Assembly: GCA_035496295.1 (NCBI GenBank) | Contig: DATJET010000199.1 | Location: forward strand, 8 to 64,007 | Origin: Gemmatimonadaceae bacterium | GTDB taxonomy: Bacteria > Gemmatimonadota > Gemmatimonadetes > Gemmatimonadales > Gemmatimonadaceae | Length of the DNA stretch: 64,000 nucleotides | Direction: 5' to 3' | Part shown: in pieces, positions 22,608 to 38,159 of the stretch | Layout of the letters: each line of letters opens with the position of its first letter | Numbering within the stretch: position 1 is the stretch's first letter | Made by a program: the position numbers and the translations under genes | Notes under the pieces: generated by a model | Seen by the model: the letters and a program-made list of their open reading frames with translations, nothing else | The model's database searches: none | What the model was told of the DNA's origin: nothing

Positions 22608-22746
22608 GAACGGCGTTGGTCACGATGTGCCACATTGTGAGAAAGAATATACCCTGCACCGCCGGTAACGCATCGGCCGTGCATCGCGTCGCGCTTTCCG
22701 CTGTCGCGCGAACAGGATAGCTTCCGCGCTCCTTCAGACTGACTCG

Positions 22747-24015
22747 GTGGCGACCGACTCTCACGATCCGTACGCGGCGCTGCGCGTGCGCGACTTCCGA
22801 CTGTTTTTGGCCGGTCGTATGCTCTCCACGACCGGCCAACAGATGTTGGACGTCGCCATCGGTTGGGAACTGTACGAGCGAACGCACTCGGCACTGGCGT
22901 TGGGACTCGTTGGGCTGGTGCTCGTCGCGCCGATCGTGGCGCTCGCCCTGCCCTCCGGTCATTTGGCGGACCGGCACGAGCGACGGGGCATCGTACTCGC
23001 GACACAGCTCGTGCTGGCTCTGTGCTCGCTTGTGCTTGCGGGCCTGTCGTTCGGCCGCGGACCGGTGCCTCTCGTGTACGTGGCGTTGTTCGTCATCGGG
23101 ATCGCGCTGGCGTTCAACCGGCCGGCGACGGCCGCGATGTTGCCGCAGCTCGTAGCCGCGGATGATTTCGCCAACGCGGTGACGTGGAACAGCAGCGGGT
23201 TTCAGATCGCGTCAGTGGTGGGGCCTGCGTTAGGCGGCGCCATCATCGGCATCCGGCATCGCGCCGGGCCGGTGTACATCGTGGATGCGGCGCTCGCGCT
23301 GGCGTTCCTCGTGTGCGTGTGGGCGATCCGGGCGCGGCGCGTCGAACAGTCCGGAGAGTCGAAGGCCGTGACCGCGTCGAGCCTCGTGGCGGGCGTGGTC
23401 TACGTGTGGCGCACGAAGGTGATTCTCGCGGCCATCACGATGGACCTGTTCGCGGTGCTCTTCGGTGGCGCAACGACGCTGCTGCCGATCTTCGCGAAGG
23501 ACATCCTGCACGTGGGACCCGCGGGCTTCGGTTGGTTGCGCGCGGCACCTTCGATCGGAGCGTTCGCGATGGCGATCGCGATCACACATCGGCCTCCAAT
23601 GCGGCGTGCTGGACGCAGCCTGCTCCTGGCTGTGGCGGGGTTTGGCGCGGCGACGATCGGATTCGGGCTGTCGCGATCATTCGCCCTGTCGATGGCGCTC
23701 TTGCTGATCGCGGGAGGCCTGGACAACATCAGCGTGGTGGTGCGGCACACGCTGGTCCAGCTGCGCACGCCGGACGCGATGCGCGGCCGGGTGTCGGCGG
23801 TGAACGGCGTGTTCATCGATACGTCGAACGAGTTAGGCGGATTCGAATCCGGCGTGACGGCGGCGTGGCTGGGGCCGGTGGCATCCGTCGTCGCAGGCGG
23901 CATCATCACGATTCTCGTCGTGCTCGCGGTGGCACGGTTGTGGCCGGAGTTGCGCGAGATGGGGAATCTCGCCGCCGAAGATTGGGGACCGGAGCTCGAG
24001 GCGGGTAACGGCTAA
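22747..24015 (+). CDS. MFS transporter (EntS/MFS_3-like)
   Basis: GTG start. N-terminus ALRVRDFRLFLAGRMLSTTGQQM is typical of the ENTS/DUF894 MFS family. 12 TM segments. Confidence 0.75.
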   Translation: MATDSHDPYAALRVRDFRLFLAGRMLSTTGQQMLDVAIGWELYERTHSALALGLVGLVLVAPIVALALPSGHLADRHERRGIVLATQLVLALCSLVLAGLSFGRGPVPLVYVALFVIGIALAFNRPATAAMLPQLVAADDFANAVTWNSSGFQIASVVGPALGGAIIGIRHRAGPVYIVDAALALAFLVCVWAIRARRVEQSGESKAVTASSLVAGVVYVWRTKVILAAITMDLFAVLFGGATTLLPIFAKDILHVGPAGFGWLRAAPSIGAFAMAIAITHRPPMRRAGRSLLLAVAGFGAATIGFGLSRSFALSMALLLIAGGLDNISVVVRHTLVQLRTPDAMRGRVSAVNGVFIDTSNELGGFESGVTAAWLGPVASVVAGGIITILVVLAVARLWPELREMGNLAAEDWGPELEAGNG

Positions 24016-24028
24016 CGAGGACGGTGCG

Positions 24029-24391
24029 ATGCGCTTTCTCATCCGGCTGATCATCACCGCGGCGGCGCTGTGGGTGGCGACGCGCGTCATCACCGGCATC
24101 AGCTACCAGGGCGGCTGGCTCGGGCTGCTCGGCGTTGCACTGGTGTTCGGCGTGTTGAATGCGATCGTGCGCCCGGTGCTCAAGTTCTTCACGTTTCCGC
24201 TGTTCCTGATCACGTTGGGCTTGTTCACGTTCGTGCTCAACGCGTTCATGCTGTGGCTCGCGAGTCCTGTGGCGGCAGCATTCGGCTTGCGCTTCCAGGT
24301 TCGCGGATTCGCGGCCGCATTCTGGGGCGCGTTGGTGGTGAGCGTCGTGAGCTTCCTGCTGTCGATGCTGATTCCGGACCGCGAGGAATAG
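24029..24391 (+). CDS. Small membrane protein, phage-holin-4_2/DUF360 (YvlD-like) family
   Basis: 120 aa with 4 TM segments, beginning MRFLIRLIITAAALWVA..FGVLNAIVRPVLKFFTFPLFLITLGLF, as in this family. Confidence 0.7.
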   Translation: MRFLIRLIITAAALWVATRVITGISYQGGWLGLLGVALVFGVLNAIVRPVLKFFTFPLFLITLGLFTFVLNAFMLWLASPVAAAFGLRFQVRGFAAAFWGALVVSVVSFLLSMLIPDREE

Positions 24392-24393
24392 CG

Positions 24394-25548
24394 TTAGAGA
24401 CGCGCGGCCACGTCGACCGGGATGCCGCCGTTCGCGGTGTGCAGCAGCGGGCGCAGCGCGACGCCGGTCTCTTTGCCTAACGATCGATCGGCGAGCATCA
24501 CCACGGCGCGCCAGTCGCGGGCGTCGGTGCGCAGCAGCCGCCCCAGTTGAGCATAGACGTCGCGGGCGCCATCGCGGTCCCCGACGCGGACACCGTAGGG
24601 CGGGTTGGTGACGATCCAGCCTGTTGTCTCGGGCAGCGCGACCGAGGTGACCGGCTGCTGTGTGAACGCGATATTACCGGCGACGCCGGCGCGATCGGCG
24701 TTGTCGCGTGCAGCGGCGATCGCGCCGGCGTCGCGATCGGAACCGTAGATGACGGCTGGCGCCGCGGGCGACGCGGCGTCGAGCGCCGCGTCGACCAAGC
24801 GGCGCCAGCCCGGGGCCGAGAATTCCGGCCAGCTCTCGAACGCGAAGCGGCGATGCGCGCCTGGGGGAAGGCGCCGCGCGACGAGCGCCGCCTCGATCGG
24901 GATGGTGCCCGATCCGCAGAACGGGTCGACTAACGGTGCGCGCACGTCCCAGCCGCAAGCGAGGATCATGGCCGCGGCCAGGGTCTCCCGCATGGGCGCC
25001 TTCGCGGTGCGCAATCGATATCCGCGCCGGTGCAGCAACTCGCCCGACGTGTCGGCGCTGATCAGACACGTGTCGTGCGCGATGCGGACGATGACTAACG
25101 CATGCGAGGCAGCGGCGGGTGCGTCGTCGTGCGGCGCGGCTCCGGCGAACGTGACGCCCGGGACGCGGGCGGCGATGGCGCCGGCCACGCGCTCGGCGAT
25201 CGCACCGGTGTGATAGAGGCGCGACTTGTGCGCGGTGACGCGTACGCGAACCACGCTGCCCGGTGGGACGAACGGATCCCACGGCAGCGTGCGGGCGCGC
25301 CGCTCGAGCTCGCCTAACGCACGGGCGCGGAAGGAGCCGAGGCGGACGACCACGCGGCTGGCGGTGCGGAGCCAGAGGTTGGCGCGCCAGACGGCCTCGA
25401 TGCCGCCGCGAAACGAAACACCGCCGGGGTCGGTTGCGTGCGGCGCGAGGGACAGCGACGCGAGCTCACCGGCGACGAGCGACTCGAGTCCGGGAGCACA
25501 GATCGCGAACAGCTCGAGCGACGCGCGCCGCGAGCTACCGGCGGACAC
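24394..25548 (-). CDS. THUMP-domain class I SAM-dependent RNA methyltransferase (RlmL/UPF0020-like)
   Basis: Contains DPFCGSGTIPIEAAL (SAM site) and NPPYGVRVG (catalytic NPPY motif). Confidence 0.8.
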   Translation of the reverse strand: MSAGSSRRASLELFAICAPGLESLVAGELASLSLAPHATDPGGVSFRGGIEAVWRANLWLRTASRVVVRLGSFRARALGELERRARTLPWDPFVPPGSVVRVRVTAHKSRLYHTGAIAERVAGAIAARVPGVTFAGAAPHDDAPAAASHALVIVRIAHDTCLISADTSGELLHRRGYRLRTAKAPMRETLAAAMILACGWDVRAPLVDPFCGSGTIPIEAALVARRLPPGAHRRFAFESWPEFSAPGWRRLVDAALDAASPAAPAVIYGSDRDAGAIAAARDNADRAGVAGNIAFTQQPVTSVALPETTGWIVTNPPYGVRVGDRDGARDVYAQLGRLLRTDARDWRAVVMLADRSLGKETGVALRPLLHTANGGIPVDVAARL

Positions 25549-26248
25549 GTGCCGTCTTGCGAGTCGATCTGGTGCGACGCCGCGGTGTCTTTTTCACCGG
25601 CGCAGGCGTGGCCTTGCGCGCGCGACGCTTCTTGGGTGTCGCGCGCGCAGCAGGCAGCTCGAGACTCCTCCACAAGTACCAGCACGCGATGGTACGGTGG
25701 GGTGCCCACGCGGCGCCGATTGCGAGTACGCGATCGCTGTTAGGCATCCGCCGCAGACGGTACGCGAGCTGGATCGCCTTGCGGATGCCGAGATCGAGGT
25801 CAGGCAATACGTCCGGCCGCCCGAGACGAAACATCAAGAACATGTGCGCGGTCCACCGGCCGATGCCTTTGACTCGCGTGAGTGCCGCGATGATGTCGTC
25901 GTCGGCGAGCTCGTGCAGACGATCGACGGGCAGGTCGCCCGTATGCACACGTTGCGCCAGGTCGCGGAGGTATCCGATCTTCTGGCGAGAGAGTCCGGCC
26001 GAACGCAGTTGGTCGTCGGTGGCAGTTAGCAGGCTCTCGGCGGATGGTTTGCCCTCGAAGAGCGCGACGACGCGGCCGTGGATGGTCGCAGCGGCGCGTC
26101 CAGAAAGCTGTTGGTAGACGATGGCCCGCAGGATGTGGTCGAAGTGCGATCCTTCGCCGCGGGCGGCGAACCGACAGGGGCCGACGTCGGCCATGACACG
26201 GGCGAGCACGGGGTCGCGGCGCAGATGGGTGACAGCGTGGTCGTGCAT
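25535..26248 (-). CDS. DNA-3-methyladenine glycosylase II (AlkA-like, HhH-GPD) with Lys/Arg-rich C-terminal tail
   Basis: Contains QQLSGRAAATI and GIGRWTAHMFLMFRLGRPDVLPDLDLGIRKA. The tail is ATPKKRRARKATPAPVKKTPRRRTRSTRKTARVRR and overlaps the next gene's start by 14 nt. Confidence 0.8.
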   Translation of the reverse strand: MHDHAVTHLRRDPVLARVMADVGPCRFAARGEGSHFDHILRAIVYQQLSGRAAATIHGRVVALFEGKPSAESLLTATDDQLRSAGLSRQKIGYLRDLAQRVHTGDLPVDRLHELADDDIIAALTRVKGIGRWTAHMFLMFRLGRPDVLPDLDLGIRKAIQLAYRLRRMPNSDRVLAIGAAWAPHRTIACWYLWRSLELPAARATPKKRRARKATPAPVKKTPRRRTRSTRKTARVRR

Positions 26249-26414
26249 GGGCTGGAATCTATGTCACAGTGGAATTGCGAGGCGAGGCGGCATCCTTCAC
26301 GAATGGAACTTGGCGGCGCAAGTGGTGCTAGTCAGCTAGATTCGAAACATGCGCGGGCCCGCTTTGGGGGCGTACGCGGCGCGCGCCGACTTCTACCAAC
26401 ACGGAAACCGCACC

Positions 26415-28124
26415 ATGCGAGTGACAGACTACGCGGCTATCGCCGCGCTTGCCGCCGCCACCGCGTGCGGCTCCTCGACCACGCAACCGCACAACGGGAA
26501 CGCCCCGTGTCCGAGTGGGTCGCAGAAGACCACGGTATCGCTCGCGGTTGGCGGCGTGCAGGCAGTGACGACGCCCGCGGCGCTCGACTGTGTGTCGTTA
26601 GCCACAACGGACGGTGGGACCGGAACGTTCCTGGTGGTCGCCGGCAACGCCGACACGGAACCGGATGTCACGGGCACGTACAATCTGGCGGTGGCAACGC
26701 CGACGTCGGCGGACATCGTGGCCGGCGATCGGTCGCGATCGGCCGCGATCGCGTCGCCCGAGCTACAGGGCGCGTACAGCTCGATTGCGGAAGGGCGCGT
26801 CCGCGCGATGGAGCGGCGCGTGCTGCTGGACAATCCCGTGGCGGTGCGCGAGGCGTCCTCGTTCATGCGACGGGCGACCAGCCGTGTGCGCGCCGAGGCT
26901 GTCCCTGCGGTCGGGGACACGTTGACGTTCAACGTGCCTAACGCAAATGCGACGAATGCGTGCCAGACGTTCACGGCGCAGCGCGCGGTGGTGAAGACGG
27001 TGGGCACGCACGGCATCATCGTGCAGGACATCACGGCGCCGTCGGGTGGATTCAGTGCCGCCGCGTTCGATTCGATCGCGGCCGAATTCGACCAGATCAT
27101 CTATCCGGCGGATACGGTGCATTTCGGCCAGCCTTCGGACATCGACGGCAACGGACACGTGTTCCTGCTGTTCACGCCGCAAGTGAACGCGGCGACGAAG
27201 CGCGGATCGAACAGCATTCTCGAGGGATTTTTCTTCGTTGGCGACCTGTTCGCGACAACGAGCTGCGCCGAGAGCAACCAATCCGAGCTGTTCTATCTGC
27301 TGACGCCCGATCCGGCGGGGAAGTTCAGCGATGTGCGATCGACCGCATCGGTGCGCCAGGACATTCGCGGCACGATTGCGCACGAGTTCCAGCACATGAT
27401 CAATGCCGGAGTGCGGCTGAGCACGGCCGCGCCGGATGAGGCCACGTGGTTGAACGAGGGCCTGTCGCACTTCGCGGAGGAGTTGGTCGGGCGCGCCGAG
27501 GACAACTTTACGGATACGCAGAAACTGAAGATCAACGATGTGGCGGACTTCCCGAGCCTCAACAACTTCGACGCCTTCTTCGGTCAGAACATGGCGCGCT
27601 TGCGGGAGTTCATGTTGAAGCCTAGTGCGTTAGGCGCGACGAGCGGGCACGCGGACACGTCGCTCGCGGTGCGGGGCGCGGCGTGGTCGCTGCTGCGGTA
27701 TTCGGCGGACCACTACGCGAACGGGAACGTCGCGGGGTTCACGCGGGCACTGGTGGCCGGGCCGGACACGGGCGTCGCGAATCTGGTAGCGCGCGCGGGG
27801 ACGTCGTTCGATTCGGTCGCGGCGGGATGGCTGCCGGCGCTGTACACGAGCGACGACAGCATCGCGAATCTCCCGGACCGGTACACGTTTCTCAGCTGGA
27901 ACGTTCGCAGCATCGAGGCGGCGGTGAATCAAGGCGTGTTCCCGCTGGTAGCGCCCACCGTATCGGCAGGGAATGCGGCGCCGGGCAGCGTGTCGTCGGC
28001 GAGCGCGAACTACTATATCGTCGGCGTGCCCGCGTCGGCAGGCGAGCTGCTGGGCGAGCTCGCGCCTAACGGAGGGGCGGTCACCTACCCGGGCGCGCGA
28101 TTCTATCTCGTCCGATTGCAGTGA
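26415..28124 (+). CDS. Secreted lipoprotein, M30 (hyicolysin)-like zinc metallopeptidase
   Basis: Lipobox AATACGSS. HExxH motif in the context GTIAHEFQHMINAG, which is typical of peptidase family M30. Confidence 0.6.
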   Translation: MRVTDYAAIAALAAATACGSSTTQPHNGNAPCPSGSQKTTVSLAVGGVQAVTTPAALDCVSLATTDGGTGTFLVVAGNADTEPDVTGTYNLAVATPTSADIVAGDRSRSAAIASPELQGAYSSIAEGRVRAMERRVLLDNPVAVREASSFMRRATSRVRAEAVPAVGDTLTFNVPNANATNACQTFTAQRAVVKTVGTHGIIVQDITAPSGGFSAAAFDSIAAEFDQIIYPADTVHFGQPSDIDGNGHVFLLFTPQVNAATKRGSNSILEGFFFVGDLFATTSCAESNQSELFYLLTPDPAGKFSDVRSTASVRQDIRGTIAHEFQHMINAGVRLSTAAPDEATWLNEGLSHFAEELVGRAEDNFTDTQKLKINDVADFPSLNNFDAFFGQNMARLREFMLKPSALGATSGHADTSLAVRGAAWSLLRYSADHYANGNVAGFTRALVAGPDTGVANLVARAGTSFDSVAAGWLPALYTSDDSIANLPDRYTFLSWNVRSIEAAVNQGVFPLVAPTVSAGNAAPGSVSSASANYYIVGVPASAGELLGELAPNGGAVTYPGARFYLVRLQ

Positions 28125-28166
28125 CGACACGGCAATCGAACGGCCGATGACCGGCGCACCGGTGCG

Positions 28167-28718
28167 ATGCGGCGGCTGATCAACTATTTCATTCGCGGGT
28201 TGGTCGTCACGGCGCCGCTGGCGTTGACGCTGTACGTCTGCTGGGATCTGTTCCACTGGGTAGACCGCTGGCTCGGGCTGTCGATTCCCGGCGTCGGCTT
28301 CGCGATCACGGTCATCCTGATCACGTTGATTGGCGTGCTCGCATCGAGCCTGTTCACGCGCGGCGCGGTGGCGGCGGTCGATCGCGCGCTGCAACGGCTG
28401 CCGTTCGTGCGGCTCGTGTACGGATCGACGCGCGACTTTCTCAATGCGTTCGTCGGCGAGAAGCGGCGCTTCGACAAACCCGTGCTGCTCGCCGTCGCTC
28501 CCGGCGATCAGACGCACATGCTGGGATTCGTGACGGCGGAATCGGTGGAAGTCCTCGGGCTTACGGGGTACGTGGCGGTGTATCTGCCGCAGTCGTACGG
28601 ATTCTCCGGCAACCTGGTGGTGGTCCCGTCCGCGCGCGTTCGCCCGTTGGCCGCCGACAGCGCGGATGTATTGGCGTTCATCGTGTCCGGTGGTGTGTCG
28701 GGCGCGCTCAAGCGCTAG
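28167..28718 (+). CDS. DUF502 family membrane protein
   Basis: N-terminus MRRLINYFIRGLVVTAPLALTLYV, two N-terminal TM segments, and ...GFSGNLVVVP, as in DUF502. Confidence 0.7.
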   Translation: MRRLINYFIRGLVVTAPLALTLYVCWDLFHWVDRWLGLSIPGVGFAITVILITLIGVLASSLFTRGAVAAVDRALQRLPFVRLVYGSTRDFLNAFVGEKRRFDKPVLLAVAPGDQTHMLGFVTAESVEVLGLTGYVAVYLPQSYGFSGNLVVVPSARVRPLAADSADVLAFIVSGGVSGALKR

Positions 28719-28844
28719 CGCGGGACGGATGCGGCCGTGCCGCGAGCGGCCGCGCCCGATTATATTGGATGTCTATACATTAGTGCGCGCGCCGCGCCCC
28801 GGATTGGCTGGAGCGCGGCGCGTGCCGTTCACCCGAGCCTTCGC

Positions 28845-30821
28845 ATGAAAGACCACCTGGCCTCACGCGCGAGCACCACGGGCGGGTTGCCCGTTGCGCC
28901 CTCGCTGGGGCCCGCGCTCGACGCCGCGCACGTCCCGCACGAACGCGCGGAAAATCGTCGCCGCATCGTGTTCATCAGCGGACTCGCCATTCTGGTGGCG
29001 TTCGGCGCCGGATTCGTCGCCGTCATCCTGATGCGGTTGATCGGGTTGATCACCAACCTCTCGTTCTACGGCCGCGTGTCGACGACGTTCGCGTCGCCGG
29101 CGGACAATCATCTCGGATTGTGGGTCGTGCTGGTGCCGGTGATCGGCGGCGTGATCGTCGGCATCATGGCGCGCTATGGATCGGCGGCGATTCGCGGACA
29201 CGGGATTCCCGAGGCGATGGAGCAGGTGCTGTACAACGAGAGCCGGGTGCCGCCGCGCGTGACGATTCTCAAGCCGGTGTCGGCGGCGTTCGCGATCGGC
29301 ACGGGCGGCCCGTTCGGCGCCGAGGGCCCGATCATCGCGACGGGCGGCGCGTTAGGCTCGCTCGTCGGGCAGCTGGTGCGGACGACGGCCGACGAGCGGA
29401 AAGTCCTGCTGGCGGCGGGCGCCGCCGCCGGCATGGCGGCGACGTTTGGCAGTCCGGTGTCCGCCGTGCTGCTCGCCATCGAGCTCTTGTTGTTCGAGTA
29501 TCGCGCGCGGTCGCTGGTACCGGTGGCACTGGCCGCGTCGACGGCAACCGCGGTGCGTATCGCGTTCATGGGCTCGGGCCCGATTTTCCCGATGCCGAAC
29601 ATCGCGCAGCCGGGCGGCGCCGCATTGGCGACGTACATCGTGTTAGGCGCGGTCGTCGGATTGGCGTCCGTGTACGTGACACGCGCCGTGTACGCGATCG
29701 AAGATGGCTTCGACAAGCTGCCCATTCACTGGATGTGGTGGCCCGCCCTCGGCGGCCTCGCGGTGGGCGTGATCGGCTACTTCTTCCCGCACACGATGGG
29801 CGTGGGCTACGACAACATCGAGAGCATCGTCGCCGGAAATTTCGTGGGCGTCGCGTTGCTCGGCCTCGTGATCGCGAAGTTCGTGTCATGGGCCATCGCG
29901 TTAGGCAGCGGCACATCGGGCGGAACGCTCGCGCCGTTGTTCACGATCGGCGGCGGGCTGGGCTCGCTGCTGGGCGCGGCCGTGATCGCGCTCGCGCCGG
30001 CGTTGGGCGTCGACGTGCGCGTGGCGGCGCTGGTCGGCATGGCGGCGATCTTCGCCGGCGCGTCGCGCGCGATGCTGGCGTCGGTGGTGTTCGCATTCGA
30101 GACGACCCGGCAACCGTTAGGCTTGCTGCCGTTGTTGGGCGGATGCAGCGCGGCGTATCTCGTGTCGCTGCTCCTGATGCGCAGTACGATCATGACCGAG
30201 AAGCTGGCGCGTCGCGGCACCGATGTGGAGGCGGACTACGCCGTGGACTACCTGTCACAGATTCTCGTCAAGGACATCGCGTCGCCCGACGTCGTGGCGC
30301 TGGACGCGGACAACGCCGTCGAGGAAGTGCGCGATTGGATGGCGTCGCGCGACGACGAATCCCGCCATCAGGGCTTCCCCGTCGTCGACAAGGAAGGCAA
30401 CCTGTTAGGCGTGGTCGGGCGCGGCGATCTATTGGATCTCGAACTGCCGATCGACGCCACCGTGCGCGATGTGATCAAGCGGCCGCCCGTCGTGATCTTC
30501 ACGGACAACACCGTGCGCCAGGCGGCGGACCACATGGTGCGCCAGGGCGTGGGCCGCCTGCCGGTGGTGACACGCGCGGATCCGGGCCGCGTCGTTGGCA
30601 TCGTGACGCGAAGCGATCTCCTGGCGGCGCACGCGACGCGCCTCGACTCCGAGAATCGGGCGAGCCGCACCATCCGGCTGGACCTGCGGGCACTGCCGTG
30701 GCGCTTCCGCCGGGCGCCGGTGAACCTGGGCGACGAAGCGGGCACGATCACGACGGTGGAAACCGCGCCGCCGACGGTCCCACCCGAGACGGACGATGAG
30801 GAGCCGCCCCGAGAGGGATGA
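28845..30821 (+). CDS. ClC-family chloride channel/antiporter with C-terminal CBS pair
   Basis: Selectivity-filter-type motifs GGPFGAEGP and GSGTSGGTLAPLF. Two CBS domains near the C-terminus. ATG at 28845. Confidence 0.85.
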   Translation: MKDHLASRASTTGGLPVAPSLGPALDAAHVPHERAENRRRIVFISGLAILVAFGAGFVAVILMRLIGLITNLSFYGRVSTTFASPADNHLGLWVVLVPVIGGVIVGIMARYGSAAIRGHGIPEAMEQVLYNESRVPPRVTILKPVSAAFAIGTGGPFGAEGPIIATGGALGSLVGQLVRTTADERKVLLAAGAAAGMAATFGSPVSAVLLAIELLLFEYRARSLVPVALAASTATAVRIAFMGSGPIFPMPNIAQPGGAALATYIVLGAVVGLASVYVTRAVYAIEDGFDKLPIHWMWWPALGGLAVGVIGYFFPHTMGVGYDNIESIVAGNFVGVALLGLVIAKFVSWAIALGSGTSGGTLAPLFTIGGGLGSLLGAAVIALAPALGVDVRVAALVGMAAIFAGASRAMLASVVFAFETTRQPLGLLPLLGGCSAAYLVSLLLMRSTIMTEKLARRGTDVEADYAVDYLSQILVKDIASPDVVALDADNAVEEVRDWMASRDDESRHQGFPVVDKEGNLLGVVGRGDLLDLELPIDATVRDVIKRPPVVIFTDNTVRQAADHMVRQGVGRLPVVTRADPGRVVGIVTRSDLLAAHATRLDSENRASRTIRLDLRALPWRFRRAPVNLGDEAGTITTVETAPPTVPPETDDEEPPREG

Positions 30822-30844
30822 TCGTCGAGCGTTAGGCGGGCCGG

Positions 30845-31276
30845 TCAGCTCTCGAGGCTGGCGTTCAGGTCGATCGCGACGTTGCCCTTCAACGCACCGG
30901 ACACCGGACAGCCCTCCTTCGTGGCTTCCGCGATCTTGCGGAATGTCGGGGCATCGAGGTTCGCCGCCTTGGCGCGGACCGTGAGCACCATCGTCGTGAT
31001 CTTGAATCCCTCGCCGGCCTTGTCGATGGTGCACGCGGCTTTGGTCTCGATGCGCTGCGCCGGCGTGCCGTTCTTTTCCAAGCCGAGGGAGAGCGCCATG
31101 CTGTAGCAGGCGGCCTCGGCGGCGGCGAGCAATTCTTCGGGATTGGTGCCGGGCGTGGTGCCGAATCTGGTGCCGAACGAATAGGCGCCACCGATTTTTC
31201 CGCTCTGCCCTGAAAATGACCCTGTCCCAGACTGCAGGCCGCCTTCCCACACGGCCGTTGCCACACGTGTCGGCAT
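30845..31276 (-). CDS. osmC: OsmC-family peroxiredoxin
   Basis: 143 aa with NPEELLAAAEAACYSMAL and KEGCPVS, carrying the two conserved Cys residues. Confidence 0.85.
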   Translation of the reverse strand: MPTRVATAVWEGGLQSGTGSFSGQSGKIGGAYSFGTRFGTTPGTNPEELLAAAEAACYSMALSLGLEKNGTPAQRIETKAACTIDKAGEGFKITTMVLTVRAKAANLDAPTFRKIAEATKEGCPVSGALKGNVAIDLNASLES

Positions 31277-31444
31277 CGTACGCTCCTGGCTATGTTGTCG
31301 ATTCCAGACGCTGCTCGAGCGTCCGAACCAAGATCTCCCGTTGGCTGCGCTGCGGCAACGGGCGCCGACGGATGCATCGCGTGGCCGGCGGACGCGGCCG
31401 TCGAGTATGTTTCGCCGGGAGGACTACACGCGCGGCGGGAGCCG

Positions 31445-31903
31445 ATGACCGACGAGTCGAAGCCTAACGAACACGATGCGGCCGAGCTGCCGCCGTCGAT
31501 CGAGCGCGTGTTGCGGTATTTCCGCTCGCTTGGACGCGAGGAGAAGATGCAGGCGCTGGTGTCGTACGCGAAGAAGCTCGAGCCCCTGCCCGACCGGTAC
31601 ACGGCCATCGACCGCTCGAACTTCACCGTTCCGGAATGTCAGACGCGCGTGGACATCTTTCCGGAAGTCCGCGACGGCCATCTGCATTTTTTCGCCGACG
31701 TGAACGTGCGGCAGTCGCCGACCGTCGCGGCGTTCCTCGCGATACTCTTCTCGGCGGTGAACGACCAGCCGCCATCGACGACGCTCGCGATTCCTCCGGA
31801 CATCGTGCCGACGATGATGCACGACATCGGGCTGGGCGCGCGCGAGGCCGGCCTCAACGCGATGGTGGACCGCCTCAAGCGCTACGCGCGCGCCGCGGCA
31901 TGA
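31445..31903 (+). CDS. sufE: SufE-like sulfur acceptor protein
   Basis: ATG is preceded by GGGAG. Contains VPECQTRVDIF (conserved Cys) and SPTVAAFLAIL, as in the SufE/CsdE fold. Confidence 0.7.
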   Translation: MTDESKPNEHDAAELPPSIERVLRYFRSLGREEKMQALVSYAKKLEPLPDRYTAIDRSNFTVPECQTRVDIFPEVRDGHLHFFADVNVRQSPTVAAFLAILFSAVNDQPPSTTLAIPPDIVPTMMHDIGLGAREAGLNAMVDRLKRYARAAA

Positions 31904-31937
31904 GCGGCCGCACGGCGTTCCGTTAGGCGGTACACGC

Positions 31938-33014
31938 ATGCCTCAGCGGCGCGTGATGCCGTCGATGCCCGCCTCCGGCCCCGCCGGTTCGCCGGCGCCG
32001 AACACGGAAGAGGAGCTGGAGCGCCGCCTCGCCGAGCCGACGCCGGCCGTGCTCGAGGCGCTCCGCTCGCTCGCCGGCGATCTCGTCATTCTCGGCGCCG
32101 GCGGCAAGATGGGCCCGACGCTCGCGCGCATGGCGCGGCGCGCGTTCGACCTGTTAGGCAGGCGCGATCGCGTGATCGCCGTGTCGCGTTTCTCGTCGCC
32201 CGAGGCGGAAGGCGCGTTGCGCCTGTCGCACATCGAGACCGTCCGCTGCAATCTCGCGGACCACACGGCCGTCGCCGCGCTGCCCCAAGCGCCGCTGGTC
32301 GTGTTCATGGCCGGCCAGAAGTTCGGCACCACCGATGCGCCGGGCACCACGTGGATGATGAACACTGTCGTGCCCGCGTTCGTCGCGGAACGCTACGCCG
32401 GCGCGCGCATGGTCGCCTTCTCGACCGGGAACGTCTACCCGCTCACCCCAGTGGCGAGCGGCGGCGCGAGCGAATCGTGCGCGCCTGCGCCGGTGGGCGA
32501 ATACGCCGCGTCGTGCTTGGGGCGCGAGCGCGTATTGGAGTACGCGTCGCGTCGCGATGGAACGCCCATGGCCATCGTCCGGCTGAACTACGCCGTGGAG
32601 CTGCGGTACGGCGTGCTGGTGGACATCGTGAGCGCGGTACTGCGCGATGAACCGGTGGATGCGCGCATGGGGTACGTGAACGTGATCTGGCAGGGCGATG
32701 CGAATGCGCGCGCATTGCAGTGTTTCGCGCACGCCGCGTCGCCGCCGTTCGTGATCAACGTGACGGGTGGCGAGACGCTGTCGGTGCGCGACCTGGCCGC
32801 GCATGCGGGCCGTCTGTTAGGCCGCACGCCGCGCGTCGAGGGCGAGGAAGCGCCCGACGCCCTCCTCAGCGATGCACGGCGGTCGATCGAGCTATTCGGG
32901 CCGCCGGCGGTGTCCGTTGGGCAGATGATGGCGTGGATCGCGGATTGGCTGCAACGCGGCGGGCGCGTGCTCGAGAAGCCCACGCACTTCCAGGAGCGGC
33001 GAGGCGCCTTTTGA
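31938..33014 (+). CDS. NAD-dependent epimerase/dehydratase family (extended SDR) protein
   Basis: Rossmann motif LVILGAGGKMGPTLARMA. About 358 aa. Confidence 0.65.
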   Translation: MPQRRVMPSMPASGPAGSPAPNTEEELERRLAEPTPAVLEALRSLAGDLVILGAGGKMGPTLARMARRAFDLLGRRDRVIAVSRFSSPEAEGALRLSHIETVRCNLADHTAVAALPQAPLVVFMAGQKFGTTDAPGTTWMMNTVVPAFVAERYAGARMVAFSTGNVYPLTPVASGGASESCAPAPVGEYAASCLGRERVLEYASRRDGTPMAIVRLNYAVELRYGVLVDIVSAVLRDEPVDARMGYVNVIWQGDANARALQCFAHAASPPFVINVTGGETLSVRDLAAHAGRLLGRTPRVEGEEAPDALLSDARRSIELFGPPAVSVGQMMAWIADWLQRGGRVLEKPTHFQERRGAF

Positions 33015-34042
33015 GCGCGACGCCGTTCGACGTGCGCGCGCATCTCGCGGCGGGCCAGGTCATCCCGGCGCATCCCTTGGCGTTGGACGCGGCCGGCCGT
33101 CTGGACGAGCGCTACCAGCGTGCGCTGACGCGGTACTACGCGGGTGCGGGCGCCGGCGGGGTCGCGGTCGGCGTACACACCACGCAGTTCGCGATCCGCG
33201 AGCACGGGCTGCTCGAGCCGGTCCTCGCGTTAGCAGCCGAGACCCTGGCCGAGCTGGAGTCCGGCGGACGCACGCCGATGGCGCGGATTGCCGGCGTGTG
33301 CGGCCCGACGAAACAGGCCGTGGCCGAGGCCGCGCTCGCGCGCGATCGCGGCTATCACGCGGCGCTCGTCAGCTACGGCGGCTGGGGCGAGGCGAGCGAC
33401 GAGGCGCTACTCGCGCACGCCCGCGCGGTGGGCGAGGTGCTGCCCGTGTTCGGCTTTTACTTGCAGCCGGCCGTGGGCGGTCGTCCGTTAGGCTACGACT
33501 TCTGGTGCCGGTTCGCCGCGCTCGAGCAGGTCGTGGCGATCAAGATCGCGCCGTTCGACCGCTACGCGACCCTGGAGGTGGTGCGCGCCGTGGGTGATGC
33601 CGGACGCCGCGATGTTGCGCTCTACACCGGCAACGACGACAGCATCATCGCCGATCTTCTCACGGTGTTTCCTAACGGACGGCGCATGGCGGGCGGCCTC
33701 CTCGGCCAGTGGGCGGTGTGGACGCGCCGCGCCGTGGAGCTCGTGCAGGAGATCAAGACGCCCGACTCCGACGCATCCGCGTCGCGATGGTTGGCGCGCG
33801 CGGCCGCGCTCACCGACGCAAACGCGGCGATATTCGACGCGGCCAACCGGTTTGCGGGATGCATCGCGGGCATTCAAGAGGTGCTGTCCCGTCAGGGGCT
33901 GCTGGGCAGCACGCGGTGCCTCGACGCGCGCGACGTGCTGTCACGCGGACAAGCGGACGCGATCACGCGTGTGTGCGCGGCGCATCCCGAGCTGCGCGAC
34001 GACGAGTTCGTTGTGGCGCATCTGGACGACTGGCTGCGCTAG
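33011..34042 (+). CDS. Dihydrodipicolinate synthase (DapA-like/DUF993-like) family TIM-barrel protein
   Basis: TTG start overlaps the upstream TGA (TTGA). General similarity to the DHDPS/NAL family (GVAVGVHTTQF..., ...IKIAPFD). The substrate is unknown. Confidence 0.5.
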   Translation: MSATPFDVRAHLAAGQVIPAHPLALDAAGRLDERYQRALTRYYAGAGAGGVAVGVHTTQFAIREHGLLEPVLALAAETLAELESGGRTPMARIAGVCGPTKQAVAEAALARDRGYHAALVSYGGWGEASDEALLAHARAVGEVLPVFGFYLQPAVGGRPLGYDFWCRFAALEQVVAIKIAPFDRYATLEVVRAVGDAGRRDVALYTGNDDSIIADLLTVFPNGRRMAGGLLGQWAVWTRRAVELVQEIKTPDSDASASRWLARAAALTDANAAIFDAANRFAGCIAGIQEVLSRQGLLGSTRCLDARDVLSRGQADAITRVCAAHPELRDDEFVVAHLDDWLR

Positions 34043-34126
34043 CCCCGGTGCGCCCTCGCGCATCCACGTGCACGCCGGTACCTTGTCGCCCGTCCTTCGA
34101 CATCGAACCTTCCCTCGGGCCACCGC

Positions 34127-35830
34127 ATGTCAGACACCGCGTGCACTCCCGTCCGCTCACGCCGCGCGTTCATCGAATACTTCGCCTCGATCGGACTCGG
34201 CTCGACGCTCCTGCCCGGCATTCTCTGGGGACAGGCGGCACAGGGTGCGGAAATCACGAGCGAATCGGTGGCCAAGGCCGCGGAGCTCGCGGGTCTCGAG
34301 TTCGATGACGACGAGCGCGCGATGATGGTGGCCGGACTCGAGCAGCAGGAGAAGCAACTGGTGACGCTGCACGGCATCACGCTGACCAACGACGTCGTGC
34401 CGGCGGTGCATTTCAATCCCGTGCTGCCGGGCATCACGATCTCGAAGGGCGAGCATCGGATCGTCCGGTCCACCGTAGCGCCGCGCTCCCTACCGGCATC
34501 GCACGCCGAGCTCGCGTTTCTTCCGGTGACGGAGCTGTCGTCGCTGGTGCGGCGCCGCAAGGTGACGAGCGAACAATTGACGCGCGTGTCGCTCGACCGA
34601 CTGCAGGAGTTCGATCCAAAGCTGCATTGCGTGATCACGCTGACCGCCGATCGCGCGCTCGAGCACGCGCGCGCGGCGGACGAGGAGCTGCGCCGCGGCC
34701 GGTGGCGCGGGCCGTTGCACGGCATCCCTTGGGGCGCGAAGGATCTGCTCGCGGTGAAGGGCTATCCCACAACGTGGGGCAGCACGCCGTACAAGGATCA
34801 AATGCTGGACGACGACGCGACGGTGGTGCGCCGCTTGGACGCGGTCGGAGCGGTGCTGGTGGCGAAGCTTTCGTTAGGCGAACTCGCCATGGGCGATGTG
34901 TGGTTTGGCGGGAAGACGCGCAATCCGTGGAAGCCGGATCAGGGCTCCAGCGGCTCGTCCGCAGGCCCGGCATGCGCGACATCGGCGGGTCTGGTCGGTT
35001 TCTCGGTCGGCAGTGAAACGTTAGGCTCCATCTCGTCGCCCTCCACGCGGTGCGGTGCCACGGGACTGCGTCCGACTTTCGGCCGCGTGCCGCGTACGGG
35101 CGCGATGGCGCTCTCGTGGACGATGGACAAGCTGGGTCCGCTGTGCCGGAGCGTCGAGGATTGTGCGCTCGTCCTCGATGCGATTCGCGGCAGCGACGGA
35201 CACGATCCAACGGCAGTGGACGCGGCGTTCCCGTACGACGCGCGCACGACGCCGGCATCCCTGCGCATCGGCTACATCAAGAGCGCGTTCGATGCGGACC
35301 ATCCGACGAAGCAGTTTGACGACGCCGCGCTCGATGCCTTACGCGCGATCGGCGCGAAGCTCGTACCGGTGGAGCTGCCCGACCAGCCGTGGAGTGCGAT
35401 GACCCTCGTCCTGCGCGCCGAAGGCGCGGCCGCGTTCGATGAGCTCACGCGCTCGGGTCGCGACAAGCAGATGGCCCAACAGGACAAGGATGCGTGGCCC
35501 AACACCTTCCGTGTCGCGCGGTTCATCCCGGCGGTCGAGTACGTCAACGCCAACCGCGCGCGGACGCTGGCGATGCGCGCCATGGAGGCGACGTTCCGCG
35601 ACGTGGATGTCGTCGTCACGCCGACGTTCGGGGCGCAGCTCGTGGCCACGAATCTGACGGGCCACCCGGCGGTGATCGTGCCTAACGGATTCCGGGACGA
35701 TGGCACGCCGGTGTCGCTCACCTTCCTCGGCCACTTGTTCGGCGAAGCCCCGATGCTCGCACTGGCGCGCGCCTACCAGAACCACACCGGGTTCCACCTC
35801 AAGCACCCGGACTGGCTGCTGACTGCCTAA
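34127..35830 (+). CDS. Amidase-signature (GatA-like) amidase with Tat-type signal
   Basis: Signal RSRRAFIEYFASIGLG. Amidase-signature core GGSSGSSAG..GSETLGSISSPS. The TAA stop lies inside a GCCTAAC copy. Confidence 0.85.
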   Translation: MSDTACTPVRSRRAFIEYFASIGLGSTLLPGILWGQAAQGAEITSESVAKAAELAGLEFDDDERAMMVAGLEQQEKQLVTLHGITLTNDVVPAVHFNPVLPGITISKGEHRIVRSTVAPRSLPASHAELAFLPVTELSSLVRRRKVTSEQLTRVSLDRLQEFDPKLHCVITLTADRALEHARAADEELRRGRWRGPLHGIPWGAKDLLAVKGYPTTWGSTPYKDQMLDDDATVVRRLDAVGAVLVAKLSLGELAMGDVWFGGKTRNPWKPDQGSSGSSAGPACATSAGLVGFSVGSETLGSISSPSTRCGATGLRPTFGRVPRTGAMALSWTMDKLGPLCRSVEDCALVLDAIRGSDGHDPTAVDAAFPYDARTTPASLRIGYIKSAFDADHPTKQFDDAALDALRAIGAKLVPVELPDQPWSAMTLVLRAEGAAAFDELTRSGRDKQMAQQDKDAWPNTFRVARFIPAVEYVNANRARTLAMRAMEATFRDVDVVVTPTFGAQLVATNLTGHPAVIVPNGFRDDGTPVSLTFLGHLFGEAPMLALARAYQNHTGFHLKHPDWLLTA

Positions 35831-35836
35831 CCGGCG

Positions 35837-36430
35837 TCAGGCGCCGTCGCCCCGCGCCTGCAGCGCCTCGAGCACGCGCTCGATCTTGCCCTCGAGGCGA
35901 TCCATCCGCTGGGTGATCAGATCGTGCCAGCCCTCTTCGCCCGTCGGGTGCTTCACCGCGAACGTCAGCGTGCCGCCCACCTCGAGGCGCGCGCAATCCA
36001 CGGTGCGCAAATCGTCGATGCCTTGTTTGCGCGCCGCCGACACGAGCTCGGAGCGCGTGATGAGCTCCCGACGCAGGCGATTCTCGATCAGCTTGCCGTT
36101 CTTGATCAAGATCACTTCGCGGCCCTCGGCGATGCGGTCGAGTCGCGGGTGCAAGAACAGGAAGCGCACCACGGCATAGTTGAGCACGAGGAGCAGAGTC
36201 GCGCCGAACAGTCCGCCTAAGAGCGAATTGTCGTTGCCGATGATCGCGTTCTGCACCGTGTTGGACAGCACCAGCAGGACGACGAGATCGAACGGGTTCA
36301 GCTGCCCGAGCTCGCGCTTGCCGGCGAGTCGGAGACCGACGAGCAAAAAGACGTAGACCACCACGGTGCGCACGGCCTTGTCGAGCAGCGGAACACCGGG
36401 CGTTAGGATGTCGGTCCAGATGGGATGCAT
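35837..36430 (-). CDS. DUF421 (YetF-like) membrane protein
   Basis: From MHPIWTDILTPGV..., with GKRELGQLNPFDLVVLLVLSN and ILIKNGKLIENRLRRELIT, as in DUF421. Confidence 0.75.
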   Translation of the reverse strand: MHPIWTDILTPGVPLLDKAVRTVVVYVFLLVGLRLAGKRELGQLNPFDLVVLLVLSNTVQNAIIGNDNSLLGGLFGATLLLVLNYAVVRFLFLHPRLDRIAEGREVILIKNGKLIENRLRRELITRSELVSAARKQGIDDLRTVDCARLEVGGTLTFAVKHPTGEEGWHDLITQRMDRLEGKIERVLEALQARGDGA

Positions 36431-36563
36431 GGGAGGACGCGGTGGGAAGGAGTCGAGCGGGAAGCGCGTCGAGCGGGTGATGATAGTATGGCAGGCGAGG
36501 CCGCGGTGACCAGAGGCGCGCAAACCCTTCGCGCGCATCCAGTGTCGAATCAGTGAAACCACG

Positions 36564-37112
36564 ATGCGACCCGTTCGGAGCGTGCCGATGAGTACGATGG
36601 CCTTGAATCTGTGGATGCTCGACACTCGACTTTCGCGTCGGCGTACCATTCCAACGTTGCGCGTCGTCGAGCGCGCGCCCGAAACGCAACGCGAGGGCTG
36701 GCTGAGCCGTCACGGCATCGAGTCGGCGGAAATCGAACCGGATGGACGTGGCGTGGTCGAGCTGCGCAAATTCGTCGGCACTCCCGCCGCACGCGCGAGT
36801 GCGATCGCCGCGATGACCCGGGTGGCGTGCGCACAGCGTGTCGTATTGGACCTGCGTCGGCACCGCGGCGGCGACGAATCGATGGCCGCCTTACTCACGA
36901 GCTTGCTGTTCGACACCGAGTCGCTGTACGCCGACGAAGTCCAGATCTCCGGCGAGGCGTTTCCCGCGACGCGGCCCGAGGCGCGCTGCACGTGGCAACC
37001 GGTCGAGGTGTGGGTCAGCGCGGCCACGAGCGCACTTGGACTTGCCTTCGCGACGAACCTCGGTCGCCTGGGGCGGGCGACGGTCCGTCGCTGGAACGAC
37101 ATGCACGCATAA
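36564..37112 (+). pseudogene. S41 (tail-specific) peptidase-like core fragment, C-terminally truncated; possible pseudogene
   Basis: Contains VVELRKF...RVVLDLRRHRGGDESMAALLTSLLF and PVEVWVSAATSALGLAFA..LGRATV, like the S41 core. It lacks a PDZ domain and ends before the catalytic Lys region. Confidence 0.35.
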
Positions 37113-37221
37113 AGGCGGACAGGACCGGACACTGCCGGATCGCTATGGTGCTGTGGCCGGCTGTGTCCTGTCGTGCGCGCCCTTATCATTCGAGCCGACT
37201 TCGACTCGAGGTTTGTTGGGC

Positions 37222-37875: not shown

Positions 37876-37933
37876 AACTCCGGTCAGGAGTTCGCGTCAC
37901 CTTCGTGCAGGGCCGCGAGGCTTCTGGCCGAGC

Positions 37934-38152: not shown

Positions 38153-38159
38153 GCCATGA

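Follow-up and report, generated by a model that had tools for sequence, protein, structure and literature searches.

A densely maintained heptamer, GTTAGGC, in soil Gemmatimonadaceae: a possible DNA uptake or self-recognition word

The heptamer GTTAGGC (reverse complement GCCTAAC) occurs 90 times in a 64 kb stretch of Gemmatimonadaceae DNA, hereafter called the window, and is dispersed over its whole length (1..64000), with 51 copies on the plus strand and 39 on the minus strand. Selection or a conversion-type drive actively maintains the word in both orientations, within genes as well as between them. From its likeness to known systems, we tentatively read it as a signal recognised on double-stranded DNA throughout the genome, for which a DNA uptake or self-recognition word of the kind of the DUS of Neisseriaceae and the USS of Pasteurellaceae seems the most likely identity.

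Enrichment and boundaries of the word

Dinucleotide-preserving shuffles yielded 2.35 ± 1.5 copies, at most 6, against the 90 observed, which corresponds to an approximately 40-fold enrichment over chance and to a density of about 1.4 per kb, or about one copy per 0.7 kb, in DNA of 65-70% G+C. The word is sharply bounded, as 90 of the 91 occurrences of TTAGGC in the window carry a 5' G, and perfect copies are more numerous than those with one mismatch. Most variants with a single mismatch show no enrichment; GTTGGGC, one transition away, is 4-fold enriched (38 versus 9.3), and all four NGTTAGGC words are over-represented in the window, 22-51 fold. When a flanking consensus was sought, only a C at position -1 (61% of the window copies) and a G at +7 were seen, both of them partly due to the CpG-rich background, in which the probability of a C where the next base is G is 0.48.

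Gene contexts were assigned with our own 51 gene calls, by which 90.5% of the window is coding. A first-pass annotation of this DNA had named phases such as dipeptide frequencies and a normal codon table would give as the outcome that would refute it, and the shuffles do not refute it: there are 77 in-gene copies, against 4.1 ± 1.8 (maximum 13) in 500 within-gene synonymous-codon shuffles, which retain the proteins and a codon usage already inflated by the word.

Conservation, spacing and turnover

Two Gemmatimonadaceae MAGs share synteny with the window, at a nucleotide identity of about 79-80%; four-fold-site identity is 54% and 58%, with synonymous sites near-saturated. Copies were identical in position in both relatives in 20 of 29 cases. 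When 7-mers were matched for phase and restricted to conserved amino acids, both relatives had the identical sequence at 11 of 14 word copies, against 523 of 3553 other 7-mers (14.7%) and 1 of 26 non-word Leu-Gly sites. In a set of eight relatives, the six loci with eight or more aligned copies kept 69-88% of them, compared with 22-44% of all 7-mers, and the two short loci kept 1 of 4 and 1 of 2 copies. Intergenic copies stand out as conserved islands, and where a copy is missing, the commonest orthologous state is GTTGGGC.

Copies are spaced more evenly than chance, with a coefficient of variation (CV) of 0.80 versus 1.03 ± 0.086 when positions are drawn at random from the permissive sites (P = 0.002). 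Copies found only in the window tend, beyond chance, to have one found only in a relative close by, at distances of 11, 33, 120, 184 and 318 bp (P about 0.03, from only 9 sites), which suggests that lost copies tend to be replaced nearby.

Five copies lie in a ClC chloride channel gene, where the first-pass annotation had placed them correctly, each as an in-frame TTA-GGC encoding Leu-Gly; the two GTTGGGC near-copies that it had reported in this gene, at 30002 and 30134, were likewise found.

28845..30821, plus strand: ClC chloride channel gene (Voltage_CLC and CBS domains) with five in-frame copies
29351..29357, plus strand: G TTA GGC at a near-universal ClC Leu-Gly (residues 170-171); copy present in the window and in L011, ATTGGGC in L001
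29642..29648, plus strand: G TTA GGC at Leu267-Gly; copy in the window only, GTTGGGC in L001 and CCTCGGC in L054
29900..29906, plus strand: G TTA GGC at a near-universal Leu-Gly (residue 353); copy kept in L001 and L054, CTC/CTG-GGC in word-free genomes
30116..30122, plus strand: G TTA GGC at Leu425-Gly; copy kept in L001 and L054, other taxa with M, I, L, H or A at this residue
30404..30410, plus strand: G TTA GGC at Leu521-Gly; copy in the window only, CCTCGGC in L001 and GGTCGGC (Val-Gly) in L054

The question had been raised of whether such sites are written with ordinary leucine codons elsewhere, and the conserved ClC Leu-Gly sites are indeed CTC/CTG-GGC in 77 word-free genomes.

Reading frames, codons and peptides

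According to our gene calls, 53 copies read G TTA GGC, 16 read G CCT AAC, 6 read GC CTA AC and 2 read GTT AGG C, while 7 overlap a stop codon and 6 are intergenic; the counts of the first-pass annotation (54, 17, 6, 2, 7 and 4) match these apart from differences in the gene calls. With 6 of 90 copies in the 9.5% of the sequence that is intergenic, there is no intergenic enrichment. The stop-codon and intergenic copies are listed here, together with a copy whose reported position inside a Walker A box was confirmed.

2791..2797, plus strand: stop codon of the cytochrome bd subunit I gene, GCC TAA C on the minus strand
35825..35831, minus strand: stop codon (TAA) of an amidase gene; absent in L001 and L054, where one lies instead at window position 35836, 11 bp downstream
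40769..40782, minus strand: two adjacent direct copies (40769 and 40776), providing the TAA stop of a sigma-factor gene and the TAG stop of the convergent gene 40778-41398
45181..45187, plus strand: stop codon (TAG) of an ABC ATPase gene, CGT TAG GC
52777..52783, plus strand: stop codon (TAG) of the gluconate 2-dehydrogenase subunit 3 gene
62738..62744, plus strand: stop codon of gene 62739-63959, GCC TAA C on the minus strand
1124..1130, plus strand: intergenic by our own gene calls
19520..19526, minus strand: intergenic, kept in L001 and L054
30831..30837, plus strand: intergenic, 10 nt past the ClC stop; CGTTAGGCG forms a conserved island beside an indel in L001
31922..31928, plus strand: intergenic; CCGTTAGGCG is kept in L001 and L054, with substitutions and indels in the flanks
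52178..52184, minus strand: intergenic by our own gene calls
56668..56674, minus strand: intergenic by our own gene calls, 13 nt upstream of gene 56687-57928
44180..44186, minus strand: antisense G CCT AAC, encoding Pro-Asn in the Walker A box LGPNGAGKS of an ABC ATPase

Since TAG or TAA arises in two of the six frames, those two are usable only as real stop codons, and 7 of the 51 stop codons in the window come from copies of the word. The four open frames are filled as peptide availability and codon cost allow, namely as X-Leu-Gly, X-Pro-Asn, (S/C/R/G)-Leu-Thr and Val-Arg. Occupancy of the permissive contexts is 33% for X-Leu-Gly (sense) and 52% for X-Pro-Asn (antisense), and in the minor classes 20% for Leu-Thr (antisense) and 4.5% for Val-Arg (sense); GTTAGGC encodes 53 of the 123 Leu-Gly pairs that follow a G-ending codon, and CCT-AAC encodes 18 of 39 Pro-Asn pairs. 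The earlier proposal that copies are tolerated only where the protein permits is supported. The same annotation had described the word as locked to the codon phase. The pattern is present, but it is the outcome of stop codons and peptide availability and no property of the word, and the phase spectrum differs in an octamer-using sister lineage (34 sense-2, 26 antisense-1, 12 sense-0 and 6 antisense-2).

TTA accounts for 74 of the 2085 leucine codons in the window (3.5%), and GGC follows it in 54 of these 74, with a G-ending codon in front in 53 of the 54. It had been stated that TTA is always followed by GGC, which is incorrect, as the other 20 TTA codons precede GTC (5), CGC (3), GCC (3) and others; some of them look like decayed copies of the word. 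That rare codons are overridden holds true, TTA making up 3.3-3.6% of leucine codons in genomes with the word at high density and 0.2% in word-free relatives. Maintenance of GTTAGGC overrides the usual avoidance of TTA, CTA, CCT and AGG and shifts dipeptide frequencies: the observed-to-expected ratio of Pro-Asn is 1.76-2.29 in the window lineage/high-density word genomes, 1.61 in the octamer lineage and 1.17-1.22 in word-free relatives. The window contains no tRNA genes, and none with a Leu(UAA) anticodon was found in 27 related loci, which are fragments of 64 kb or less.

The codon and phase pattern is, in our analysis, a consequence of pressure on GTTAGGC at the DNA level. The first-pass annotation had come to the same view, which is borne out by the presence of copies on both strands relative to transcription, by the intergenic and stop-codon copies, by the use of codons that word-free relatives hardly have, by the CTC/CTG-GGC spelling of the ClC Leu-Gly in word-free genomes, and by conservation far beyond that of synonymous sites.

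Strand and orientation

In the window, 57% of the copies are on the plus strand, and the cumulative GC skew is uniformly positive throughout. Normalised to permissive sites, occupancy differs weakly and not significantly between the chromosome strands (0.33 versus 0.25), and once opportunity is accounted for, the word has no preference for a transcription strand. A strand excess of 150:100 by GC skew across loci was discounted: redundancy among syntenic loci and the many G residues of the word exaggerate it, and the strands are in balance when loci are independent. Strong co-orientation with replication, as in Chi and KOPS, was not seen in this one 64 kb window plus short loci.

Lineage distribution and dialects

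The GTTAGGC signal is confined to certain lineages of soil Gemmatimonadaceae, with dialects in sister lineages. Six of eight close relatives carry it at 1.1-1.3 per kb and the two short loci at a lower density, while 77 other loci, other Gemmatimonadales included, have at most 0.17 copies per kb; other Gemmatimonadaceae lineages are without the word. Position -1 is C in 77% of the copies in close relatives and in 91-94% of those in L011 and L091-107, and the octamer CGTTAGGC is the variant word of L011, L091-107 and L120. A further form, CGTCAGGC, is enriched in L093, L094 and L282 and also raised in L289.

The uptake-signal reading

The best available analogy appears to be that with DUS and USS. 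These, too, are short non-palindromic words present at about one copy per kb in both orientations, lineage-restricted with single-base dialects and conserved at orthologous sites; their in-gene copies likewise occupy tolerated frames only, the encoded peptides are commoner, and perfect copies exceed one-mismatch copies (PMC3630211, PMC2817400, PMC1939737), with an effect of USS on the proteome having been reported (PMC2817400). By this analogy, fragments of DNA with the word would be bound by a putative receptor on the cell surface, probably one associated with type IV pili, and recombination of the DNA taken up would spread new copies and restore mutated ones, with the outcome that conspecific DNA would be preferred and a copy would be kept on almost every fragment. 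In Neisseria, the minor pilin ComP is the specific uptake receptor. The window encodes a type IV pilin of the major type (16568-16954).

GTTAGGC differs from DUS and USS in its length, 7-8 bp compared with 10-12 bp for DUS and a 9 bp core plus flanks for USS, and in its host phylum, the Gemmatimonadota, in soil. Every open frame of GTTAGGC needs a rare codon, whereas uptake sequences reportedly favour frames with preferred codons, according to Findlay and Redfield. As of 2025, DNA uptake enhancing sequences (DUES) had been described only in the two proteobacterial families Neisseriaceae and Pasteurellaceae, and terminators hold about half of the DUS/USS copies, many of them as inverted pairs (bioRxiv 10.1101/2025.10.24.684340). 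In the window, no inverted GTTAGGC pairs occur within 150 bp, and terminator-like sites are at chance level, none of them overlapping a copy. The lack of an extended flanking consensus and of terminator, inverted-pair or intergenic enrichment counts against an uptake word, and a DNA-binding or DNA-modifying protein inside the cell would account equally well for conservation, even spacing and dialects. With yet a little more reserve, CGT[T/C]AGGC can be proposed as possibly the first self-recognition word of the uptake-signal type outside Proteobacteria, which would label the chromosomes of uncultured soil Gemmatimonadaceae for a receptor acting in DNA uptake or recombination; if its reader is intracellular, it would be a new asymmetric chromosome-wide signal comparable to HIP1.

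Alternative explanations

The main rival, which we hold to be rather unlikely, is a role inside the cell like that of HIP1 (GCGATCGC), in which a cytoplasmic protein (for example an orphan or asymmetric-site methyltransferase, a linked repair enzyme of the very-short-patch type, or a factor of the nucleoid or of chromosome maintenance) recognises the word, and copies are kept either because a dense, even array is needed or by motif-directed mismatch correction, with less loss and more gain. HIP1 of cyanobacteria is over-represented 15-300 fold in coding and non-coding DNA, uses non-preferred codons and is conserved beyond codon preference (PMC5861425; PMC4390886), which the tens-of-fold enrichment, conservation and rare codons of GTTAGGC parallel. 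Single-base dialects are what a specificity change in a DNA-recognition domain would be expected to produce, and the missing association with terminators and inverted pairs fits this role better than it fits DUS/USS. However, HIP1 is a palindrome recognised by known methyltransferases and is near phylum-wide, whereas GTTAGGC is asymmetric, unlike most dimeric methyltransferase or repair sites, has no methyltransferase linked to it and is patchy within one family. The window has no DNA methyltransferase or Vsr-like gene, its sole methyltransferase being RlmL-like, an RNA enzyme, and neither even spacing nor the replacement of lost copies close by is predicted by repair drive alone. What HIP1 does is itself under debate, and recent preprints tie it to transformation or horizontal transfer.

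The remaining explanations are improbable to differing degrees. A Chi-like hotspot or polar signal (KOPS/AIMS), read by RecBCD/AddAB or FtsK and protecting or orienting the chromosome, is an improbable one. Chi and KOPS are short asymmetric species-specific words over-represented in core genes, and the word shares with them its length of 7-8 nt, asymmetry, lineage specificity and abundance in core genes, and in the window it is slightly commoner on the G-rich strand (51:39); yet Chi and KOPS are strongly co-oriented with replication and sparser, known Chi densities being several times below 1.4 per kb, whereas GTTAGGC is close to strand-symmetric, without a significant difference after normalisation. 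Context-specific mutation bias acting by itself, for instance a deamination hotspot turning GCCCAAC into GCCTAAC (GTTGGGC into GTTAGGC) without selection, would account for GTTGGGC being enriched and the commonest state at lost orthologous sites, but a precursor should be depleted, a hotspot at one position cannot fix all seven positions at 54-58% four-fold identity, and even spacing, intergenic islands and dialects at other positions would stay unexplained, so that we consider this highly improbable. Still less credible are sites of an integron-type tyrosine recombinase, although GTTAGGC fits the core GTTRRRY and GCCTAAC the inverse core RYYYAAC exactly (PMC12901181), a fit that only about 0.2% of heptamers would show by chance, and GCCTAAC is the R'' box of attC(aadB) (PMC12901181). 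The window has no attC-like inverse-core/core pairs at 50-150 bp, its closest minus-to-plus pair being 221 bp apart, and neither an integrase nor a cassette array; the invariant GTT is lost in the CGTCAGGC dialect, and thousands of insertion targets inside genes would be harmful. We treat the match to the integron core as a coincidence. A translational or peptide-level cause, whether a preference for the codon pair TTA-GGC or selection for Leu-Gly and Pro-Asn peptides, has a negligible probability. Its one support is that TTA-GGC is in frame in 59% of the copies; antisense Pro-Asn contexts are filled more often (52%) than sense Leu-Gly contexts (33%), intergenic and stop-codon copies exist, the preceding G is the third position of varied codons in 53 of 54 cases, 77 other genomes write the same conserved Leu-Gly sites with CTC/CTG, and word-free relatives use TTA at 0.2%. 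The first-pass annotation had likewise rejected translational selection.

Novelty and significance

No published description of GTTAGGC, of its octamer or flanked forms, or of a Gemmatimonad uptake sequence or competence was found by full-text literature searches, in which the sole relevant match to the word was in the context of integron core sites. To our knowledge, genome-saturating signal words are rare; GTTAGGC is a third, independent case beside DNA uptake words and HIP1, in an abundant, almost uncultured soil phylum. Its maintenance across species, its dialects and its recoding of proteins provide a new system for studying how such words originate, by drive or by selection, and the dialects offer a handle for finding the reader protein through phylogenetic profiling. 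By analogy with known uptake words, our findings suggest that soil Gemmatimonadaceae may undergo natural transformation with a preference for their own DNA. The word can also serve as a sharp compositional marker, both in the binning of these genomes and in recognising foreign DNA in them, and the rise of TTA from 0.2% to 3.6% of leucine codons is a warning for inference based on codon usage.

Other repeats and gene candidates

An RlmL-like methyltransferase gene and an overlapping HhH-GPD glycosylase gene (24394-26248) were considered as a VSP-like module and set aside, the architecture being that of an RNA methyltransferase and the pair being ordinary syntenic housekeeping. Unrelated candidate dialect words in word-free sisters, CCTGCGGGAAGCGG in L281 and L088 and (GCAGGAA)n in L286, were rejected as REP-like or tandem arrays; these are clustered and mostly intergenic and therefore a different phenomenon from GTTAGGC. 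Viral contigs were scanned for close GTTAGGC pairs, and most of the 120 matches were chance, this sample being uninformative on phages of this clade. In L221 and L254, the two viral G+C-rich loci (above 65%) with the most copies, the word occurs solely inside tandem iterons.

Abundance and codon phases of the word in the window

The heptamer GTTAGGC, counted together with its complement GCCTAAC, has 90 copies in the 64 kb window (51 on the plus strand and 39 on the minus strand), against an expectation of 2.35 ± 1.5 and a maximum of 6 in dinucleotide-preserving shuffles of the window, whose G+C content is 65-70% throughout. Genes were called by codon-usage score, yielding 51 genes that make up 90.5% of the window, and each copy was then classified.

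Word copies in the window by codon phase (own gene calls), with occupancy of the permissive sites for each peptide context in the four open frames
G-TTA-GGC: 53 copies; X-Leu-Gly, sense; 53 of 162 permissive sites, 33%
G-CCT-AAC: 16 copies; X-Pro-Asn, antisense; 16 of 31, 52%
GC-CTA-AC: 6 copies; (S/C/R/G)-Leu-Thr, antisense; 6 of 30, 20%
GTT-AGG-C: 2 copies; Val-Arg-(L/P/H/Q/R), sense; 2 of 44, 4.5%
Overlapping a stop codon: 7 copies
Intergenic: 6 copies

The first-pass annotation had counted 54, 17, 6, 2, 7 and 4 copies in these classes, which match ours to within gene-call differences, and it had placed five copies in the ClC gene, two GTTGGGC sites and a copy in a Walker A box (LGPNGAGKS) correctly. 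The remaining two of the six frames, xGT-TAG-GCx and GCC-TAA-C, contain stop codons, so that the word is possible there solely as a real stop; it supplies 7 of the 51 stop codons in the window. The four open frames are filled according to opportunity, and as the most saturated context, X-Pro-Asn, is antisense, the orientation of transcription is irrelevant to the word. In the octamer lineage, a sister lineage with a longer form of the word, the phase spectrum differs (34 copies in sense-2, 26 in antisense-1, 12 in sense-0 and 6 in antisense-2). Phase locking thus results from pressure that acts on the DNA and is not inherent in the word.

Among the 51 gene ends, TGA is used 24 times, TAG 15 and TAA 12, and the share of TAA and TAG looks high to us for 67% G+C; besides the seven stops within the word, several others are one mismatch away from it, for example, GGC TAA C and CGT TAG AC.

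Effect on codon usage and dipeptide content

TTA accounts for 74 of the 2085 leucine codons in the window (3.5%), and 54 of the 74 are followed by GGC; in 53 of these, the preceding codon ends in G. Outside the word, the share of TTA among leucine codons is about 1%. The word encodes 53 of the 123 Leu-Gly pairs that follow a G-ending codon, and CCT-AAC encodes 18 of the 39 Pro-Asn dipeptides. In word-free Gemmatimonadaceae loci, TTA makes up 0.2% of leucine codons, and both TTA-GGC and CCT-AAC are all but missing, which bears out the earlier proposal that the word overrides codon usage. The further statement that TTA always precedes GGC does not hold, as 20 TTA codons have other followers. The refutation test named by the first-pass annotation was run by shuffling synonymous codons within each gene, which keeps the proteins and the already word-inflated codon table; 500 shuffles gave 4.1 ± 1.8 in-gene copies (maximum 13), compared with 77 observed.

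In the window, only one dipeptide is more over-represented than Pro-Asn (observed/expected 1.73 for Pro-Asn). With a second gene caller, the ratio for Pro-Asn was 1.76-2.29 in the lineage of the window, 1.61 in that of the octamer and 1.17-1.22 in word-free relatives. Both codon usage and dipeptide content give way to the word. The Pro-Asn excess parallels the roughly two-fold rise of peptides encoded by uptake sequences reported by Findlay and Redfield (PMC2817400).

Distribution of related words

The nearest ClC loci belong to two Gemmatimonadaceae MAGs, at 89% (L001) and 86% (L054) amino-acid identity, with 1.32 word copies per kb each; L011 has 0.78 per kb, and none of the other 77 loci, which include other Gemmatimonadaceae and Gemmatimonadales, exceeds 0.17 per kb. 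Loci from a scan of metagenomes with a lineage-specific protein, together with nine contigs encoding SucA homologues, reveal a patchy family of related words.

Words found in the comparison loci
L081-86 (window lineage, with L001 and L054): GTTAGGC, 0.56-1.3 per kb
L011, L091-107, L120: CGTTAGGC, 0.25-0.94 per kb
L093, L094, L282: CGTCAGGC, 10-12 copies compared with about 1.4 expected
L289: CGTCAGGC, 9 copies (raw count)
L285, L287, L288: GTTAGGC, residual, 0.14-0.20 per kb
L281, L283, L284, L286, L087-90: no enriched word, 0

The base preceding the word is relaxed in the window, where it is C in 61% of copies and each of the four NGTTAGGC words exceeds expectation 22-51 fold; C precedes the word in 77% of copies in close relatives and in 91-94% in the octamer lineage. 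The lineage variants correspond to what have been called dialects for the uptake sequence DUS (PMC3630211).

Conservation, spacing and local replacement of copies

Over positions 18853-40404, the window aligns collinearly with both L001 and L054 (nucleotide identity about 79-80%), and four-fold-degenerate sites are 54% and 58% identical with the two relatives and 44% in both, near saturation for the composition. Both relatives have an identical copy at the corresponding position for 20 of the 29 window copies. When phase-matched 7-mers with all three amino acids conserved were compared, 11 of 14 word copies were identical in both, compared with 523 of 3553 other 7-mers (14.7%); among non-word Leu-Gly sites, 1 of 26 was identical. 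Of the eight relatives compared, six have 8 or more aligned copies, and in these 69-88% of copies were conserved; two short loci kept 1 of 4 and 1 of 2. For all 7-mers, the baseline was 22-44%. Intergenic copies at 19520, 30831 and 31922 persist as CGTTAGGCG or GCGTTAGGCG, with substitutions and indels around them. Where relatives miss a copy, the site usually carries a synonymous sequence (for example, GTTGGGC, CCTCGGC or GCTCGGC) or has a conservative substitution. In the ClC gene, two of its five copies lie on near-universal Leu-Gly pairs, and there 77 word-free genomes use CTC/CTG-GGC.

Copies are more evenly spaced than under random placement among permissive sites (CV 0.80 compared with 1.03 ± 0.086, P = 0.002), and copies found only in the window lie unusually near copies found only in relatives (11, 33, 120, 184 and 318 bp; P about 0.03, 9 sites). 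In the clearest swap, GCCTAAC at the amidase stop codon (35825) lacks a counterpart in L001 and L054, which have a TGA stop and bear GCGTTAGGCG at the equivalent of 35836, 11 bp downstream; the window reads GCGTCAGGCG at that site.

Possible functions of the word

The word is lineage-specific and read on DNA independently of orientation, and selection or a conversion-type drive keeps it at a density near one copy per 0.7 kb. A translational cause is contradicted by the codon-shuffle result, the antisense saturation, and the stop-codon and intergenic copies. A one-site mutational hotspot does not account for seven positions all held constant, and GTTGGGC, its putative precursor, shows a 4-fold enrichment and no depletion. 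Nor is the word an element of the REP or MITE type: the copies have no extended consensus and sit in frame within housekeeping genes. TTAGGC is the repeat unit of nematode telomeres, a likeness treated as coincidence. We also take as coincidence that GTTAGGC fits the integron core-site consensus GTTRRRY, and its complement the inverse core RYYYAAC (PMC12901181), since the window holds neither attC-like pairs nor an integrase, and the C dialect breaks GTT.

The closest functional model, which we favour tentatively, is that the word may serve as a DNA uptake or self-recognition sequence. Density, strand symmetry, dialects, site conservation, sharp specificity and proteome effect resemble those of the uptake sequences DUS and USS, and a type IV pilin gene in the window lends weak support; counted against membership are a length of just 7-8 bp, the absence in the window of any association with inverted pairs or terminators, and the lack of intergenic enrichment. 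The main rival, rather less probable, is an intracellular reader like that of the cyanobacterial palindrome HIP1, whose phenomenology is the same (PMC5861425), although HIP1, unlike this word, is a palindrome with known methyltransferases. A Chi-type role is improbable, as Chi- or KOPS-like polarity is not seen (57% of copies on the plus strand; normalised occupancy 0.33 compared with 0.25, not significant), and the remaining readings are more improbable still. Full-text literature searches returned no account of this word, nor, for Gemmatimonadota, of any hyperabundant or uptake-type word, and a 2025 survey still confines DUES to Neisseriaceae and Pasteurellaceae (bioRxiv 10.1101/2025.10.24.684340). 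Signal words that saturate a genome were known before; this one comes from a new phylum, and its mix of properties is unusual.

Neighbouring genes and other repeats

Genes of the window
16568-16954 (+): type IV pilin gene with N-terminal methylation motif, GC3 0.93; best PDB matches Geobacter and Thermus PilA
24394-25548 (-): RlmL-like methyltransferase gene
25535-26248 (-): HhH-GPD DNA glycosylase gene, low coding score, overlapping the 5' end of the methyltransferase gene by 14 nt

Each of the nine SucA-homologue loci (L281-L289) has a pilin gene beside or near sucA. Upstream of this pilin gene, the word-free L283 (8258-9008) and L284 (579-2496, 6817-7585) carry several toxin-antitoxin pairs (PhdYeFM/PIN, YoeB, PemK); the corresponding stretch of the window holds small genes without domain matches.

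A different repeat, CCTGCGGGAAGCGG, occurs in L088 and in L281, which represents a sister lineage devoid of the word (SucA identity 74%); its sites in L281 include 2703-2745, 4433-4502, 16635-16910 and 19730-19773. GCGGGAAGC has 23 copies in 22.7 kb, 13 of them intergenic, in direct and inverted REP/BIME-like clusters. L286 has an intergenic tandem heptamer, (GCAGGAA)n, at 3577-3860, 12856-13000 and 15705-15897, in opposed orientations around genes, and AAGCAGGA occurs there 17 times (0.55 expected). Over-represented words elsewhere are the octamers ATCCCAGC in L036 (Dyella; 17 compared with 0.95 expected) and CCAGCAAC in L035 (Thermoanaerobaculia; 14 compared with 0.69), and the HIP1 word GCGATCGC in L033 (Planctomycetota MAG; 32 compared with 5.8). 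In two IMG/VR viral contigs, GTTAGGC lies solely within tandem iterons: GGCCTAACCT three times at 1402-1428 of L221, adjoining a VapE-like gene (identity read from the ORF), and GGTTAGGCGAAG five times at 200-254 of L254, adjoining a cytosine methyltransferase gene.
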